Shown in pieces: positions 1,952-7,211 of a stretch of 25,305 nt of DNA (positions within the stretch are counted from its first letter, which is position 1; each line of letters begins with the position of its first letter). Below the pieces are notes generated by a model. That model was not told the origin of the DNA. It was given only the letters and a program-made list of their open reading frames with translations, and searched no databases. The position numbers and the translations under genes were made by a program. This stretch comes from Candidatus Omnitrophota bacterium (lineage in GTDB: Bacteria; Omnitrophota; JAUWXU01), in assembly GCA_030616145.1 (NCBI GenBank), contig JAUWXU010000001.1, positions 1-25,305 on the forward strand, given 5' to 3'.

Positions 1952-2758
1952 ATGTATAAAAATTTCTTTGGCCTGAATGAAAAACCATTTAATATGACTC
2001 CCGACCCCAAGTTCCTTTTTTTCAGCCGAGGACATCAAGAGGCCTTTTCTCATCTTAGGTATGGAATAAAAGAAAAGAAGGGATTTATTGAGATTACCGG
2101 CGAGGTGGGCACCGGCAAGACAACCCTTTGCCGTGCTCTGCTGAATTACCTGGATAAAGAAATCAAAACCGCCCTTATCCTGAATTCCAATTTATCTCCC
2201 AACCAGATGCTGCAAACTATTGTTGAAGAACTGGCCATCAAGCCGCGCAAAGAAAATAAGAAGGAGATTCTTGCTGCGCTGAATAATTTTCTCATTGAAC
2301 AGTTGTCTTTGGGCAACAATGTCGTTTTGATTATTGATGAATCGCAGAACATGAGTCCTTCTATGTTGGAACAAATCAGGATGCTGTCTAATCTGGAAAC
2401 AGAAAAAGAGAAGTTGCTTCAGATTATACTGGTTGGCCAGCCCGAGCTACGGGATAAACTCAAACTTCCCCATCTAAGGCAGCTGAGACAGAGAATCGCT
2501 GTTCGCTATCATATTAATCCTTTAGACAAAGAGGAAAGTTCTAAATATATCTTCCATCGATTGCAGGTTGCCGGTTCAAAAGGAGACATATCTTTTACCG
2601 ATGATGCCCTGGACAGTATCTTCGCCTATTCAGGCGGGATTCCCCGCTTAATTAATGTAGTTTGCGACAAGGCGCTGCTGGCTGGTTATGTTATGGAGAC
2701 AAGGAAAATTAACGGACAGATTATAAAAAGGTCTATTGAAGAAATAGAGGGAAGGTGA
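1952..2758 (+). CDS. ExeA/GspA-family AAA+ ATPase, without a C-terminal peptidoglycan-binding domain
   Basis: N-terminus MYxxFFGLxEKPFxxTPDPxF, Walker A GEVGTGKTT, Walker B LIIDESQ, LVGQPEL and SGGIPRLINVVCDKALL are all typical of ExeA-like ATPases. Confidence 0.9.
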   Translation: MYKNFFGLNEKPFNMTPDPKFLFFSRGHQEAFSHLRYGIKEKKGFIEITGEVGTGKTTLCRALLNYLDKEIKTALILNSNLSPNQMLQTIVEELAIKPRKENKKEILAALNNFLIEQLSLGNNVVLIIDESQNMSPSMLEQIRMLSNLETEKEKLLQIILVGQPELRDKLKLPHLRQLRQRIAVRYHINPLDKEESSKYIFHRLQVAGSKGDISFTDDALDSIFAYSGGIPRLINVVCDKALLAGYVMETRKINGQIIKRSIEEIEGR

Positions 2759-2766
2759 GTGAATAA

Positions 2767-3312
2767 ATGAGTATTGTAAACGACGCCTTAAAGAAAATCG
2801 CCGGGCAAAGGACAAAAAAGATTCTTATTGAACCTTCCAGGCCCTTTCGACAGCAGCCGGCCAGAAAAGGGGTTATAGTGGTTTTAGGGGGAATTGTTAT
2901 CCTGATTGTTTTAATCGGGTTATTTTTGTTGAAATGGCCGTTATTATTAGAGCAGGATAGAAAAGAAAATATAGCTCTGCCTTATTTGGGCAGCCAGGAT
3001 GAGAATACTGAGGGAATTACTGAAGGTGAATTTATAGAGAAAGTTTCTGGCGGGGAAATTGCAGATAAACTTGATCAAGAAGTTGAGAATGAAATTGTTA
3101 AAGAGATTACTGAGGACGAAGAATTAGCCAAAAAACCGGAGCTTTCCTTAACCGGGATTGTCTGGGGGAATGAAAGGCCCTGTGCCTTTATTAATAATAT
3201 GATGGTAGAAGAAGGTGAGATGGTTAATGGTGCAAAGGTAGTAAAGATAGATTACAGAAAGGTTCTGCTGAGTTTTGGAGAGAAAGAAATCTCTCTTTCC
3301 CTTGGCAAATAG
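2767..3312 (+). CDS. GspB/ExeB-like bitopic membrane protein
   Basis: Starts MSIVNDALKK, has one TM helix (aa ~36-58), an acidic linker and a C-terminal beta-rich domain (LSLTGIVW..AFINN..V.EGE.VNGAKVVKI). It lies directly downstream of the ExeA-like gene. Confidence 0.7.
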   Translation: MSIVNDALKKIAGQRTKKILIEPSRPFRQQPARKGVIVVLGGIVILIVLIGLFLLKWPLLLEQDRKENIALPYLGSQDENTEGITEGEFIEKVSGGEIADKLDQEVENEIVKEITEDEELAKKPELSLTGIVWGNERPCAFINNMMVEEGEMVNGAKVVKIDYRKVLLSFGEKEISLSLGK

Positions 3313-3331
3313 ATTTTTTCAGTTATTATAG

Positions 3332-3733
3332 ATGTTTAACTTAACTAGATATGAGAAAGGCATAATAGTCTTTTTAGCAGCGAGTATTGTTTTGGGATAC
3401 GGTCTCGTCTATTTCCAAAAGGTACACTCCCATACCAAAGATTTTGGTGTGGGGGTAAATGCTGAGCCTCCTCTCCCAGCTTCCTGGGTGGCCCATTCTT
3501 ATCAAAAAGAACTTCCTGCCCGTTCCATCAGGACAGTCTTTGTTATAGACATAAATAAAGCCGATTACCGGAATTTAATTCGGCTTTCCGGGATCGGTCC
3601 TGTATTGGCACAAAGGATTATTGACTACCGCAGTCGCAACGGTACCTTTAAGCGGATAGAGGAAATTAAGAATGTATCCGGAATTGGCAATAAGAAATTC
3701 GAACGAATAAAGGAGTTTCTAGTCTTAGAGTGA
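3332..3733 (+). CDS. comEA: ComEA-family DNA-binding protein (N-terminal TM anchor plus helix-hairpin-helix domain)
   Basis: IDINKA..L..LSGIGPVLAQRIIDYR...G.FK.IEEIKNVSGIGNKKFERIK is the ComEA HhH domain. It precedes comEC. Confidence 0.92.
   Translation: MFNLTRYEKGIIVFLAASIVLGYGLVYFQKVHSHTKDFGVGVNAEPPLPASWVAHSYQKELPARSIRTVFVIDINKADYRNLIRLSGIGPVLAQRIIDYRSRNGTFKRIEEIKNVSGIGNKKFERIKEFLVLE
3426..3456. repeat. 31-nt palindrome in frame inside the comEA linker
   Basis: actcccataccaaa-gat-tttggtgtgggggt forms a 14-bp stem (two G.T pairs) with a 3-nt loop. It encodes part of HSHTKDFGVG. Confidence 0.75.
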
Positions 3734-3799
3734 AATGGACACTGCCAGGATTGACTATTGCCTTTTGTTTGGAAATAATAACTGCTAATTATACCGCAA
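3722..3799 (+). repeat. 78-bp direct repeat, copy 1 (comEA stop plus first ~23 codons of comEC)
   Basis: 73/78 identical to 4681-4758 by manual alignment, with no gaps. Confidence 0.95.
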
Positions 3800-3852
3800 G
3801 TTCGATCAAAATAATCCCCTCTTATTCAGTTAAAAAATTAACACTAAATTAA
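3730..3852 (+). pseudogene. Truncated 5' remnant of comEC (40 aa), with its GTG overlapping the comEA stop
   Basis: Translates as MKWTLPGLTIAFCLEIITANYTA then unrelated sequence, ending at TAA 3850-3852. The intact comEC start reads MKWTLPGMTIAFCVGIITANYTA. Confidence 0.8.
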
Positions 3853-3880
3853 CACTAAATTAATAGTTAGCAAGTATAAT
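3838..3880 (+). promoter_or_regulatory. Three TTAA(C/T)A hexamers at 11-bp periodicity followed by a perfect TATAAT -10 box
   Basis: ttaaca at 3838 and 3849, ttaata at 3860, TATAAT at 3875-3880. There is no TTGACA-like -35 at the 17-bp position. Confidence 0.55.
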
Positions 3881-3907
3881 TTAGTTAGAAACTGGGAAAC
3901 GAATAAG

Positions 3908-4522
3908 ATGCAAGCCAAAACATGTTTTCTCATTTTGTTGTTCATTTTTTTATGTAAATCCACGCCCATTTTGGCGGGATCGATGCCTATGGAAAAGGAA
4001 GATACAGGTTTTGCTGGCAATATTGTTATTAGGCAAGAAAGGTACAAAATTGGTAGTGTTTCAATAGTCAAGCCGGTTTCGGTAGATCTGAGAATTTTAA
4101 ATATTATAAACCTTGAAGGCATAAAGTCAATCGAAGATTATGCACTGTGGTTGAAGGAAAATGTAAAATACAGAAAGGATGATAGTGCTGACGTCTGGTC
4201 TTTACCAGATGAAACGCTGACAAGAAAATATGGAGATTGTGAAGATTTTGCTTTTTTGAATGCAGCTTTTCTGCACGTAATGGGTTACAAGCCTAAAGTA
4301 ATGGCGATAGTAGGAGGGATAAGGAAAGGGGGTCACGCTATCTGTGCCTTCAGAAAAGGTGATCATTATCTATGGTTTGACAATGCCGAACTTAAAAAAA
4401 TCCCGGCAGCCTCAATCGAAGAATTTACCAAACATATTTTTCGAAGGTATGCCTGCTTGGGTCTTTTTGAAATCGACCTTGATAACAGAACTAAACATAG
4501 TTTATCTGATCAGTCTAGATAA
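3908..4522 (+). CDS. Secreted transglutaminase-like cysteine peptidase (BTLCP/LapG-like)
   Basis: Signal peptide (aa 1-23), W..P.ETL...YGDCEDFA with the catalytic Cys, then GHAIC (His) and WFDN (Asp), giving the Cys-His-Asp order of this fold. Confidence 0.8.
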   Translation: MQAKTCFLILLFIFLCKSTPILAGSMPMEKEDTGFAGNIVIRQERYKIGSVSIVKPVSVDLRILNIINLEGIKSIEDYALWLKENVKYRKDDSADVWSLPDETLTRKYGDCEDFAFLNAAFLHVMGYKPKVMAIVGGIRKGGHAICAFRKGDHYLWFDNAELKKIPAASIEEFTKHIFRRYACLGLFEIDLDNRTKHSLSDQSR

Positions 4523-4680
4523 TAAAGAAGATTAGGCATCTAAACTCAAACTTATCCTTGAGCCTGCAATCTAACATTAGCTATGTTTCATTTGCAGGTG
4601 AGACAAGTTCATAATCCCTTATTTTGTGTCCACCTTGCATCGATCCAAGTCCAAAACAATGAGAAACATCGGGAACTCTG

Positions 4681-4758
4681 GTCTGAGAGTGAAATGGACT
4701 CTGCCAGGAATGACTATTGCCTTTTGTGTGGGAATAATAACTGCTAATTATACCGCAA
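4681..4758 (+). repeat. 78-bp direct repeat, copy 2 (supplies the start of intact comEC)
   Basis: 73/78 identical to 3722-3799. Confidence 0.95.
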
Positions 4759-6227
4759 TTCCCTTTCTTTTCTTTTATGGATTTGCTTGCCTCTTTTTAA
4801 TAGGTACACTTATTTCGTTTAAAAGAGATCTGGCCTTTTACATTGCCCTTCTTTGTGTTTTCTTTTCCATCGGTGCTATCCTGTTGAAGAATTCTCAGAC
4901 TCTTCCTGCCTGTCATATTGCCAACTTCAGCCCCTATAAATCAGAGAGAGTATTTTTAAAAGGAACGATAGATAGCGATCCTTTCTCTGGGCCCAAGAAA
5001 ACCTCTTTTATTTTAAGGGCAAAAGAGCTTTATCTTGGTCAAACTCGCCGGCAGGTTTGCGGCAAGGTCCTGGTTTCAGTATTTGAGAAACATAATTTTA
5101 TCTATGGTCAAGAACTGGTTTTAGAAGGGTCTTTGTATCGCCCGTTTAATTTTCAGATTTCAGATAGATTGAATTACCGAAATTATCTTTCCGGTCAGGG
5201 TATTTATTCCCTTTTAGCGGTCAAAAAAGGTTCTCTGATCAAAGATACGGGGAAGAACTCCGGCAATTTTTTAAAATCATTTGCTTTTCGGATAAAACAC
5301 AGTATGGCGGAAGTAATTTCAAAAAGGCTTTCGCCGGTTTCTGCCAGCGTCTTAAATGCTATGTTGTTAGGTGAACGAAAGGGTGTTCCTGATTTTATAA
5401 CCGAAAACCTGTTACGCACAGGTACTGGTCACATCCTGGCAGTATCCGGCCTCCATGTGGGTATCGTGGCCTTTGTCCTGCTGGTCTTTCTAAAGGCCCT
5501 CCGCATCTTTGGCAGGGTTCGCTACGTTATCCTGATAATTTCACTGATTATTTATGCGATTCTTACCGGCGCCAGGCCTTCAGTGCTGAGGGCAACAGTT
5601 ATGGCAATAATTATTTTGGGCGGGTATTTATTCAGAAGAGAAACATCTATCTACAATTCTTTGGCGTTGGCTGCGGTGTTTATTTTGTTTTTAAATCCTG
5701 CGCAACTTTTTGGGATTAGTTTCCAACTTTCTTTCGCGTGCGTTATTTCAATTCTGTGGATTTCCCCCAAGATCAAATCGTTATTTCCTGCTTATTTGTT
5801 TGGCAAAGGCTGGCTGCGTTTTTTAGCAGTGGCCATATCTATTTCTACAGCAGCCTGGCTGGGTAGTTTAGGCCTGATTGTCTATTATTTTAAGATTTTT
5901 TCTCCAATAACTATATTTGCGAATATAATTGTTAGCGCACTTTTGCCTTTAGTTATCATTTCCGGACTTACCCTGGTGCTATTTGGAAGTTGCATTCCCC
6001 TTTTAGGAGTTATATTTGCAGCGAACTGCGAGTTTTTCACAGCGGTTCTAATTAAACTGAATTCTGTTTTAGCCGCCATTCCCGGTTCCTATTTCAAGCT
6101 TAATTCGCCGCCTCTTATTTATATTATCGGTTATTATGGTTTATTATTGTTGGTTTTTTCTTCCTATTGGCAAAGGTGGGCCTTCTTGACAAAACTTAAA
6201 GCCTGTGATATAGTTAGAGAAAAATAG
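4689..6227 (+). CDS. comEC: ComEC/Rec2 DNA uptake channel (OB-fold/DUF4131 plus competence domain; no C-terminal metallo-beta-lactamase domain)
   Basis: GTGHILAVSGLHVG motif, GARPSVLRATVM, SFQLSF and many TM helices. The start is set at GTG 4689 by homology to the duplicated, comEA-coupled GTG at 3730. ATG 4659 and GTG 4626 are in-frame alternatives. Confidence 0.93.
   Translation: MKWTLPGMTIAFCVGIITANYTAIPFLFFYGFACLFLIGTLISFKRDLAFYIALLCVFFSIGAILLKNSQTLPACHIANFSPYKSERVFLKGTIDSDPFSGPKKTSFILRAKELYLGQTRRQVCGKVLVSVFEKHNFIYGQELVLEGSLYRPFNFQISDRLNYRNYLSGQGIYSLLAVKKGSLIKDTGKNSGNFLKSFAFRIKHSMAEVISKRLSPVSASVLNAMLLGERKGVPDFITENLLRTGTGHILAVSGLHVGIVAFVLLVFLKALRIFGRVRYVILIISLIIYAILTGARPSVLRATVMAIIILGGYLFRRETSIYNSLALAAVFILFLNPAQLFGISFQLSFACVISILWISPKIKSLFPAYLFGKGWLRFLAVAISISTAAWLGSLGLIVYYFKIFSPITIFANIIVSALLPLVIISGLTLVLFGSCIPLLGVIFAANCEFFTAVLIKLNSVLAAIPGSYFKLNSPPLIYIIGYYGLLLLVFSSYWQRWAFLTKLKACDIVREK
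6186..6214 (+). promoter_or_regulatory. Sigma70-type promoter for bamD-lptE, embedded in the comEC 3' end
   Basis: TTGACA (6186-6191), a 17-bp spacer, TATAGT (6209-6214), with an extended -10 TG at 6206-6207. Confidence 0.75.
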
Positions 6228-6236
6228 TATAGCAAA

Positions 6237-7211
6237 ATGCGAAATTTTACGATTATTTTAGCCCTTTCTTTTTTACAATTTGTTTATGTTCAGGAAGTTA
6301 CGGCATTCTGGATCTGGACCCCGGATAGCGGAAAGTGGAGCAATCCGAAATATATGGCCAAAGATACTCCTGAAAGGAGCTTTGAGTATGCCAAAACCTT
6401 TTATGATTCAAAGGATTATGATGAAGCGATAAAGGGATTTGAGGTATTAATCAGCAGTTTTCCTCTTTCCGATTTGGCCAGTGAGGCCCAGTATTATATC
6501 GGCCGGTCCTATGAAGCAATGCAGAAATATTATTACGCCTATCTGGCCTACCAGAAGGTCATTGATGAGTACCCAGGTTCTGAAAGGATAACTGAAGTAA
6601 TTGCCAAGGAATATGAAATAGCTGATTTCTTTTACAATCGGGAAAAGGCAAAGATCCTCGGTAAATCGATAGGTATGTTTTCATCAAAGGAGAAGGCCCT
6701 GGAGATCTTTCAGAAGATAGTTAGCGACGCCCCGTATGGAGAATATGGGCCGCTTGCCCAATATAAGATTGGTATTTATTACAGGGACACGGCTAGATAT
6801 AAAGAGGCAATAGATGAATTTAACAAACTAATAGACAATTATCCTCAAAGCAAGTTGATTGTTGAGGCGCGATATGAAATAGCCATTTGTTTATTTGAAA
6901 TAGCTGCGCAGCGCGATTATAAACAGGCAGATATTGATAAGGCCATTAGAGAATTTCAGGATTTTCTTACAGATTATTCTGAAGATAAGCTGGCTGCTGA
7001 AGCTGTAAACAAATTGACTGAACTGAAGCAAAAAAAAGCTGAAGGAATTTTTTCAATTGCGCAGTTTTATGAAAAACAGGGTGATCTGGACAGCGCTTTA
7101 ATATATTACAAAGAAATCAGGGATTCTTTAGGAGATACCCCCTGGGTTATTAAGGCCGTAGAAAGGATTTTAGTTATTAATAAGGGGCGGGTAAATGCGA
7201 ATGATTCATAG
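6237..7211 (+). CDS. bamD: Outer membrane protein assembly factor BamD-like TPR protein
   Basis: Signal peptide and serial TPRs with BamD-type motifs (FPLSDLASEAQYYIG, YPQSKLIVEARYEIA, A...FQDFL.DY, AQFYEK.G...SALIYYKEI). It is adjacent to lptE. Confidence 0.8.
   Translation: MRNFTIILALSFLQFVYVQEVTAFWIWTPDSGKWSNPKYMAKDTPERSFEYAKTFYDSKDYDEAIKGFEVLISSFPLSDLASEAQYYIGRSYEAMQKYYYAYLAYQKVIDEYPGSERITEVIAKEYEIADFFYNREKAKILGKSIGMFSSKEKALEIFQKIVSDAPYGEYGPLAQYKIGIYYRDTARYKEAIDEFNKLIDNYPQSKLIVEARYEIAICLFEIAAQRDYKQADIDKAIREFQDFLTDYSEDKLAAEAVNKLTELKQKKAEGIFSIAQFYEKQGDLDSALIYYKEIRDSLGDTPWVIKAVERILVINKGRVNANDS

Follow-up and report, generated by a model that had tools for sequence, protein, structure and literature searches.

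A repeat-flanked protease gene inserted between comEA and comEC in a lineage of Omnitrophota

We analysed a stretch of 25,305 nucleotides (nt) from the Candidatus Omnitrophota bacterium assembly GCA_030616145.1 (contig JAUWXU010000001.1, positions 1 to 25,305), hereafter the window, in which the competence genes comEA and comEC are held apart by a short cassette carrying a single gene for a predicted secreted protease. The cassette is a true insertion polymorphism, since uninterrupted GTGA junctions, at which the stop codon of comEA overlaps the start codon of comEC, were found in close relatives (contigs L048, L051 and L053), in the more distant contig L049 and in the genomes G001 and G002. 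A preliminary description of the window had proposed an insertion into a formerly overlapping junction, and these empty sites bear that proposal out. The occupied arrangement is fixed in its lineage across up to 9% divergence, and it is probable that it goes back to a single old insertion, which has since been stably inherited as an ordinary accessory gene and is not a working switch. The cassette can be described as a repeat-flanked single-gene islet that behaves like an insertion-duplication integrant. Its parts and immediate neighbours are the following:

3332-3733, forward strand: comEA, 133 aa, with a transmembrane anchor, a variable linker and a helix-hairpin-helix DNA-binding domain (Pfam HHH_3, 6e-21)
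3718-3799, forward strand: repeat copy 1, 82 nt, made up of the comEA 3' end, the native comEC GTG (3730) and about 23 codons
3730-3852, forward strand: comEC stub, a relic open reading frame (ORF) of 40 codons that keeps the native AAGGAG/GTGA coupling to comEA
3800-3907, forward strand: left non-coding part of the insert, AT-rich, with 11-nt units and a conserved TATAAT; likely the cargo promoter
3908-4522, forward strand: cargo gene, 204 aa, predicted secreted transglutaminase-fold cysteine protease, DUF553/BTLCP-like
4523-4676, forward strand: right non-coding part of the insert, carrying a conserved in-frame ATG (4659); no terminator detected
4659-6227, forward strand: comEC, with the Pfam domains DUF4131 (2e-23) and Competence (1e-55) and no metallo-beta-lactamase domain
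4677-4758, forward strand: repeat copy 2, made up of a comEA-tail remnant lacking a Shine-Dalgarno (SD) sequence, the native GTG (4689) and the true comEC N-terminus

A direct repeat at the comEA/comEC junction, with its copies 959 nt apart, had been described before; its position and spacing held, but the length of 78 nt and the five mismatches given for it did not. In our repeat search the two copies measured 82 nt (3718-3799 and 4677-4758), were 93% identical with six mismatches, and lay 959 nt apart from start to start, the longest exact stretch that they have in common being 26 nt. No second long repeat was found in 2500-6000, and a chance origin of the 82-nt repeat is therefore excluded. 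Copy 1 includes the final 16 nt of comEA, with the stop codon, and the GTGA stop/start overlap, after which the frame runs for 40 codons to a stop and carries Glu in place of Gly at residue 15, as had been reported from the window. Copy 2 opens the intact comEC, in which Pfam recognised both the Competence and the DUF4131 domains. The motif AAGGAG is present upstream of copy 1 and missing upstream of copy 2 in the window. Between the copies the ORF list and Pfam yielded one gene with a family match, the protease gene at 3908-4522, and no recombinase or transposase ORF within or beside the cassette, again in agreement with what had been noted. Nor did the repeat search detect terminal inverted repeats at the ends of the insert. 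An insertion sequence (IS), a transposon or a miniature inverted-repeat transposable element is thus not what we are dealing with, given that terminal inverted repeats and a transposase are lacking, that the duplication is 84 nt long in its ancestral form against the short 2-14 bp of such elements, and that the cassette was found in single copy in a genome that is 72% complete.

Relatives of the window were found by a metagenome scan with the ComEC N-terminus, and L053 by way of ComEA homologues. Seven occupied alleles were collected, namely the window, L047 (which is the same contig as L055), L052, L054, L056, L057 and L044; the six contigs other than the window stem from independent assemblies and are 90-96% identical to the window arrangement. 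In L047, L052, L054, L056 and L057, which come from other samples and assemblers, copy 1, the insert and copy 2 lie on one contig. L044 covers the right half only, and its first 289 nt are GC-rich, unrelated coding sequence, which marks the contig as chimeric; only its 3' part was used. The cargo and its junctions were also met in Logan contigs of four runs, each from a different study. The cargo was the same in all seven occupied alleles and none was larger or different at the site, so that the search for other cargo between the same repeats, which the preliminary description had suggested, came to nothing.

Empty sites had likewise been looked for in relatives, and these were found. In L048, which is 92-95% identical to the window, the junction is present once and the cassette is absent; L051 (88-90%) and L053 (about 91%), both empty too, belong with L048 to a sister clade, and L049, again empty, stands further off (77-82%). 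In the family-level genomes G001 and G002 the comEA/comEC GTGA overlap is present, there is no insert, and the cargo gene was found in neither genome. The empty sites within the ingroup lie in a sister clade, and among contigs, which drop rare variants, none was seen within the same population as an occupied one. One further empty contig shares its ENA sample with an occupied contig but belongs to a different lineage, both contigs being known from gene maps only. The contigs behind P0004, P0009 and P0041 were likewise represented by gene maps only.

Since the window belongs to a fragmented metagenome-assembled genome (MAG; 670 kb, 116 contigs, 72% complete), and other contigs of the population are visibly chimeric (the 5' end of L044, and L050), the arrangement could be suspected of being an artefact of assembly, either a chimeric join or a mix of strains at a short repeat. 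This suspicion can practically be set aside: five independent contigs, from different samples and assemblers, span both copies and the insert and run from comEA or copy 1 through the insert and copy 2 into comEC, and the exact run common to the two copies is just 26 nt at its longest. Mis-assembly, which it had been recommended to exclude by means of reads, is thus excluded on the evidence of contigs.

The nature of the duplication was examined by aligning all repeat copies and all empty junctions together. No alignment position sets every copy 1 apart from every copy 2, and copy 2 of L047 equals the inferred ancestral junction. The copies therefore began identical to the resident DNA, and the repeat is a target duplication and not a look-alike brought in by an element. 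The ancestral repeat was 84 nt long, from TCTGG to GCAATT. Of the six mismatches in the window, copy 2 has the derived state at four and copy 1 at two. As had been proposed, the duplication regenerates the start of comEC and leaves comEC whole.

In the account that we favour, a foreign fragment of about 875 nt, consisting of a promoter, one secreted-protease gene and a 3' tail, would have entered the 4-nt overlap of comEA and comEC in the ancestor of the lineage, and its insertion would have duplicated about 84 nt of resident sequence, that is, the last 16 nt of comEA and roughly the first 23 comEC codons. Copy 1 would then have completed comEA and copy 2 supplied the N-terminus of comEC, so that both competence genes stayed whole; such an insertion would have survived because two overlapping genes can both remain whole only if the overlap is duplicated. 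Later the protease gene would have been held under purifying selection, the native start region of copy 2 and the stub would have decayed, and homologous recombination would have acted on the locus through precise deletion between the repeats and through the shuffling of alleles between lineages. For the first step we tentatively suggest an illegitimate insertion with a long target duplication, produced by staggered-break repair or by template switching during DNA uptake, and would put its chances at a little below even. Its advantage is that the lineage's own junction need not have been present on a donor beforehand.

A different origin would be a circle, bearing the protease gene and an 84-nt copy of the junction, that entered by a Campbell-type single crossover mediated by RecA, maybe following transformation; the same route could spread the cassette. 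A direct duplication of a resident segment is exactly the product of a single crossover, the copies were identical at origin and matched the empty-site sequence, and the locus itself encodes DNA-uptake machinery. The conflicting histories of cargo and flanks, and the resemblance of L044 to a recombinant with its crossover at the repeat, both described below, can be counted on the same side. However, such an origin requires that a foreign gene and the lineage's own junction had already been joined on a circle, the source of which is left unexplained, and a stretch of 84 nt is on the short side for RecA to recombine efficiently. Furthermore, no circle junction was present in the contigs of four runs, and ordinary allelic replacement through long flanks explains the discordance equally well. 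We regard this route as rather unlikely. The cassette is similar to the Campbell-type integrants made by single-crossover circles in naturally transformable bacteria in that it is bracketed by a resident duplication with both neighbouring genes complete, and in that recombination between its repeats would restore the original junction exactly. It differs from them in that no circular donor is known here, the homology amounts to about 84 nt, and the allele is natural, ancient and fixed and holds a gene under selection.

One might go further and regard the cassette as a mobile unit without a recombinase, which leaves and re-enters as a circle at the 84-nt repeat by natural transformation and host recombination and so targets the very competence operon that imports it. 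Under such a scheme the discordance between cargo and flanks, the recombinant L044 and the possible precise loss of the cassette would all be traces of the cycle. We consider this improbable; if such a repeat-mediated cycle were true, it would amount to a minimal mode of mobility that does without a recombinase.

Returning to the single old insertion, its age can be judged from the divergence of the copies. Within one genome the two copies differ at 3 of 82 positions in L047, 6 of 82 in the window and 7 of 82 in L052 (4-9%), and divergence between cassette haplotypes reaches 9%, from which it follows that the insertion is roughly of the same age as the clade bearing it. It had been held not to be very recent, and this divergence agrees. 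A tree built from the concatenated flanks unites L048, L051 and L053, the empty alleles of the ingroup, in one clade (support 95/96) and leaves the occupied alleles as an unresolved basal grade. A constraint that the latter be monophyletic costs 8 log-likelihood units and was not rejected in approximately unbiased (AU) tests on the concatenated flanks (p 0.18) or on the left flank (p 0.35). Two histories fit, and both are possible: a single gain on an occupied clade, or a basal gain with one precise loss. It is possible that this one loss took place through recombination between the repeats.

The histories of cargo and flanks also conflict, as the window cargo is nearest to that of L052, whereas the window flanks are nearest to those of L047 and L057. 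We take this discordance as moderate support for homologous exchange across the locus. The comparison of synonymous divergence (dS) given below is no more than suggestive of a lateral transfer of the cassette, and the cargo dS of 0.10 on which it turns is not clearly below the dS of 0.17 for the neighbouring AAA_22 gene. A further sign of exchange is seen in L044, whose junction and comEC 5' sequence have four informative sites in common with the empty allele L051, and which appears to have arisen by recombination of an occupied allele with an empty one.

Several points weigh against an account in which one insertion was simply passed on by descent. In the best flank tree the occupied alleles come out as paraphyletic, and their monophyly is rejected when the right flank is tested by itself (AU p 0.027). 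The cargo dS that separates the window from L052 (0.10) falls below the comEC dS (0.28), which simple vertical descent does not by itself account for. Copy 2 of L044, alone among the alleles, keeps 12 extra nt of the comEA tail, including AAGGAG, and a single fixed boundary does not explain them without later recombination. The history accordingly seems to have involved a precise loss or a lateral exchange of alleles. As to the insertion itself, we know of no bacterial mechanism that routinely yields a target duplication of 84 nt, so that the origin step proposed above is a guess, and no donor of the fragment was found.

The state of comEC bears on whether the cassette could serve as a switch. 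The in-frame start candidates are these: ATG 4659, which is derived from the insert and lies 10 codons 5' of the native start; the native GTG 4689; ATG 4710, at codon 8; and GTG 4626. Every one of the seven occupied alleles keeps the insert ATG; L052 has CTG where the native start codon GTG stood, and six of the seven no longer have the AAGGAG before copy 2. Together these observations suggest that comEC is started from the insert. By comparison, ATG 4710 of the window is TTG in the other alleles, and GTG 4626 is not conserved. Thus comEC now probably begins at ATG 4659 and has thereby gained the 10 residues MRNIGNSGLR. That copy 2 lacks an SD sequence had been noted correctly, but there is little reason to see a handicap in it, because roughly every second gene in the window is likewise without one and the insert ATG is retained throughout. 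A terminator scan found no terminator between the cargo gene and comEC, which makes read-through from the cargo plausible, and comEC is probably transcribed by read-through from upstream.

For comEC the ratio of non-synonymous to synonymous substitution rates (dN/dS) was 0.19-0.21 where the cassette is present and 0.18 in the empty allele, and since constraint is equal in both states the insertion does not disable comEC. The stub behind comEA, on the other hand, is a decaying relic. It starts like comEC and then passes into unrelated sequence and a stop, three haplotypes have 40 aa of it, whereas a 46-nt deletion has shortened it to 25 aa in the L047 group, and its changes in L052 are mostly non-synonymous. 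The Glu at residue 15 is specific to copy 1 of the window, copy 2 and every relative having Gly.

In Listeria, where a prophage interrupts comK, and in Bacillus subtilis, where the skin element interrupts sigK, the split gene is non-functional until a recombinase encoded by the element excises it. The cassette is alike in having a competence-related target and flanking repeats; it differs in that comEC is whole when the insert is present and in that no recombinase is encoded. It had been proposed that the cassette could act as a switch on DNA uptake; on such a reading comEC would remain silenced or uncoupled for as long as the cassette is in place. Indeed, excision through the repeats would exactly restore the ancestral GTGA coupling, empty alleles show that same junction, and copy 2 of the window is without an SD sequence. 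Yet the inserted state cannot be called an 'off' state, as comEC is full length and equally constrained with or without the insert, its substitute ATG is conserved, and many genes here do without an SD sequence. Moreover, there is neither a recombinase nor a terminator between the cargo and comEC, a circle of 959 nt with no origin or integrase could not re-insert, and the occupied state has been stable across up to 9% divergence. Over 2500-6500 the contigs of the four runs, which drop rare variants, held no 959-nt skip of the kind expected from an empty site, nor any circle junction, both of which had been suggested as signs of excision. A programmed switch is in our judgement very improbable. 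One joint that goes back 919 nt, with a 32-nt side, was met in run X4 and was rejected as a circle junction; it matches the left junction of the L047 type, in which copy 1 ends with GCAATTCC and is followed by the 46-nt deletion.

Another possibility is that the cassette is a decayed, non-autonomous integrative element resembling a cis-mobilizable element, with the 84-nt repeats as its attachment (att) sites attL and attR and its recombinase encoded elsewhere. The insert does lie between direct repeats where a conserved gene ends, presence and absence differ between sister lineages, and with a MAG that is only 72% complete a recombinase acting in trans may have been missed. Against this stand the absence of an integrase in or beside the cassette, the single copy found in a search of the 670-kb MAG, and the seven occupied alleles, not one of which has a larger or another cargo. 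The repeats, besides, duplicate the lineage's own fast-evolving sequence and not a conserved att core, and their drift by 4-9%, together with the deletion at the left boundary in one group, is unlike what is seen at maintained att sites. We find such an element hard to credit. A comparison with SXT is instructive, since there too foreign DNA lies at the 5' end of a conserved gene, which remains functional with its 5' end regenerated. However, SXT is about 100 kb long, encodes a tyrosine integrase and Xis of its own, relies on a short att core, and is able to excise and to transfer, whereas the cassette consists of one gene, has no recombinase and showed no excision.

The cargo product is predicted to be a secreted cysteine protease with a transglutaminase fold. 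Its N-terminus resembles a signal peptide, and it matched Pfam DUF553 with 37.6 bits against a cut-off of 20.5 and also Transglut_core; the match to Peptidase_C93 was weaker and fell under the family cut-off. The putative catalytic triad is Cys111-His143-Asp158, of which, in an alignment of 28 homologues, C111 and H143 were invariant and D158 was present in at least 90%. All homologues in this alignment with a source name are from Omnitrophota. An AlphaFold (AF2) model had a predicted local distance difference test score of 86, and Foldseek matched it to 3isr (a putative cysteine protease of Cytophaga), LapG and CPR-C4, with E-values of about 1e-4 and template modelling scores of 0.4-0.5. The cargo thus shares with LapG/BTLCP and CPR-C4 the fold, the Cys-His-Asp triad and export or a periplasmic location, but is only 13-20% identical to them, matches DUF553 best and not Peptidase_C93, and has no LapD partner. 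With a dN/dS of 0.25-0.44 the gene appears, from its sequence variation, to be under purifying selection.

Outside the lineage the closest cargo homologues are 56-66% identical and lie in unrelated neighbourhoods, none of them between repeats. Around eight other members of the family no repeats bracketing the gene were found, so the family is not in general a repeat-flanked cassette. One outside homologue adjoins a pilin gene. In L045 a frame similar to OrfA of the IS3 family, recognised by eye (1563-1685), lies about 350 nt 3' of a homologue of 61% identity, a hint that genes of this protease family may occur in mobile surroundings.

In the left non-coding part of the insert, the 11-nt unit TTAACACTAAA stands in tandem within 3838-3866, upstream of the cargo gene. 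The window has two copies, L052 and L057 have three, and the L047 group, with its 46-nt deletion, is left with about 1.5. A perfect TATAAT at 3877-3882 is conserved across alleles, and this part (3800-3907) is likely the promoter of the cargo gene. In a promoter scan, promoter-like sites were no more numerous than in shuffled sequence. Copy 1 contains a sigma-70-like match (TTGACT-17-AATAAT, 10/12; 3751-3779), of which copy 2 (4710-4738) has a weaker form, a T-to-A change giving ATGACT. An Rfam scan of 3200-5000 returned nothing relevant. The GC content of the insert is 31-39% against about 37-45% nearby, the low values being confined to the AT-rich leader, and there was no clear foreign GC signature in the insert.

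What makes the locus of wider interest is that it offers a clean and well-replicated natural case of a gene wedged between two translationally coupled, overlapping genes with neither of them broken. A long target duplication makes such a wedge feasible, the duplicated start region decaying and the insert supplying a new start codon. The locus also displays presence/absence variation and allele shuffling at a DNA-uptake locus in an uncultured phylum of small genomes, and its variation is indirect evidence of active homologous recombination in these Omnitrophota populations. Neither a new kind of regulatory switch nor a new class of mobile element comes to light here.

Around the insert the gene order is leuS, an AAA_22 (ExeA-like) ATPase gene, a GspB-like gene, comEA, the insert, comEC, a TPR/YfiO lipoprotein gene, lptE and holA. 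Orthologues of comEA lie directly 5' of comEC across many Omnitrophota families, and named homologues assign the MAG to this phylum. Runs that share words with the locus came from marine-sediment, cold-seep and subsurface metagenomes in 13 studies. A literature search on Omnitrophota and comEC turned up nothing on this locus.

In family f12 (G026 and G028) a gene for a PpiC/SurA-type isomerase lipoprotein of about 330 aa was found between comEA and comEC (L004, 2969-3958, reverse strand; L005, 423-1433, forward strand). It was rejected as an instance of the same phenomenon because the junction duplication is missing, and is a second, independent gene for an exported protein at this junction.

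The linker of comEA (3400-3570 of the window) is hypervariable, the ComEA proteins of close relatives being 122-152 aa long and 73-81% identical where the flanks are 90-96% identical. The comEA of L052 has 34 differences within 3422-3571, and in a contig from run X3, 73 nt of the linker (3421-3495) are replaced by 40 other letters.

In the 533-aa comEC frame of the window Pfam finds two domains only, the C-terminal metallo-beta-lactamase domain being absent, and no separate gene for such a domain follows comEC in the window. ComEC proteins of about 510-560 aa without the domain occur in the family of the window and in family f5 (L003; L006, L010 and L014 were examined). In other Omnitrophota families the comEC frames are about 800 aa long, and L005, the one that was read, has an HxHxDH motif.

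Some of the contigs show further peculiarities of their own. In L052 (1-1070) the genes rplN-rplX lie 5' of the AAA_22 gene, the place held by leuS in the window, L048, L053 and L057, as the result of either a rearrangement or a chimeric contig. In L050 (BART01003016; 1-1226) the inverted segment 7641-6794 of the window, covering lptE and the TPR gene, is joined to comEC (4794-5164), which may be an inversion or an assembly chimera, and at the contig end of L056 (1115-1177) the sequence resembles a sequencing adapter of the Nextera type.

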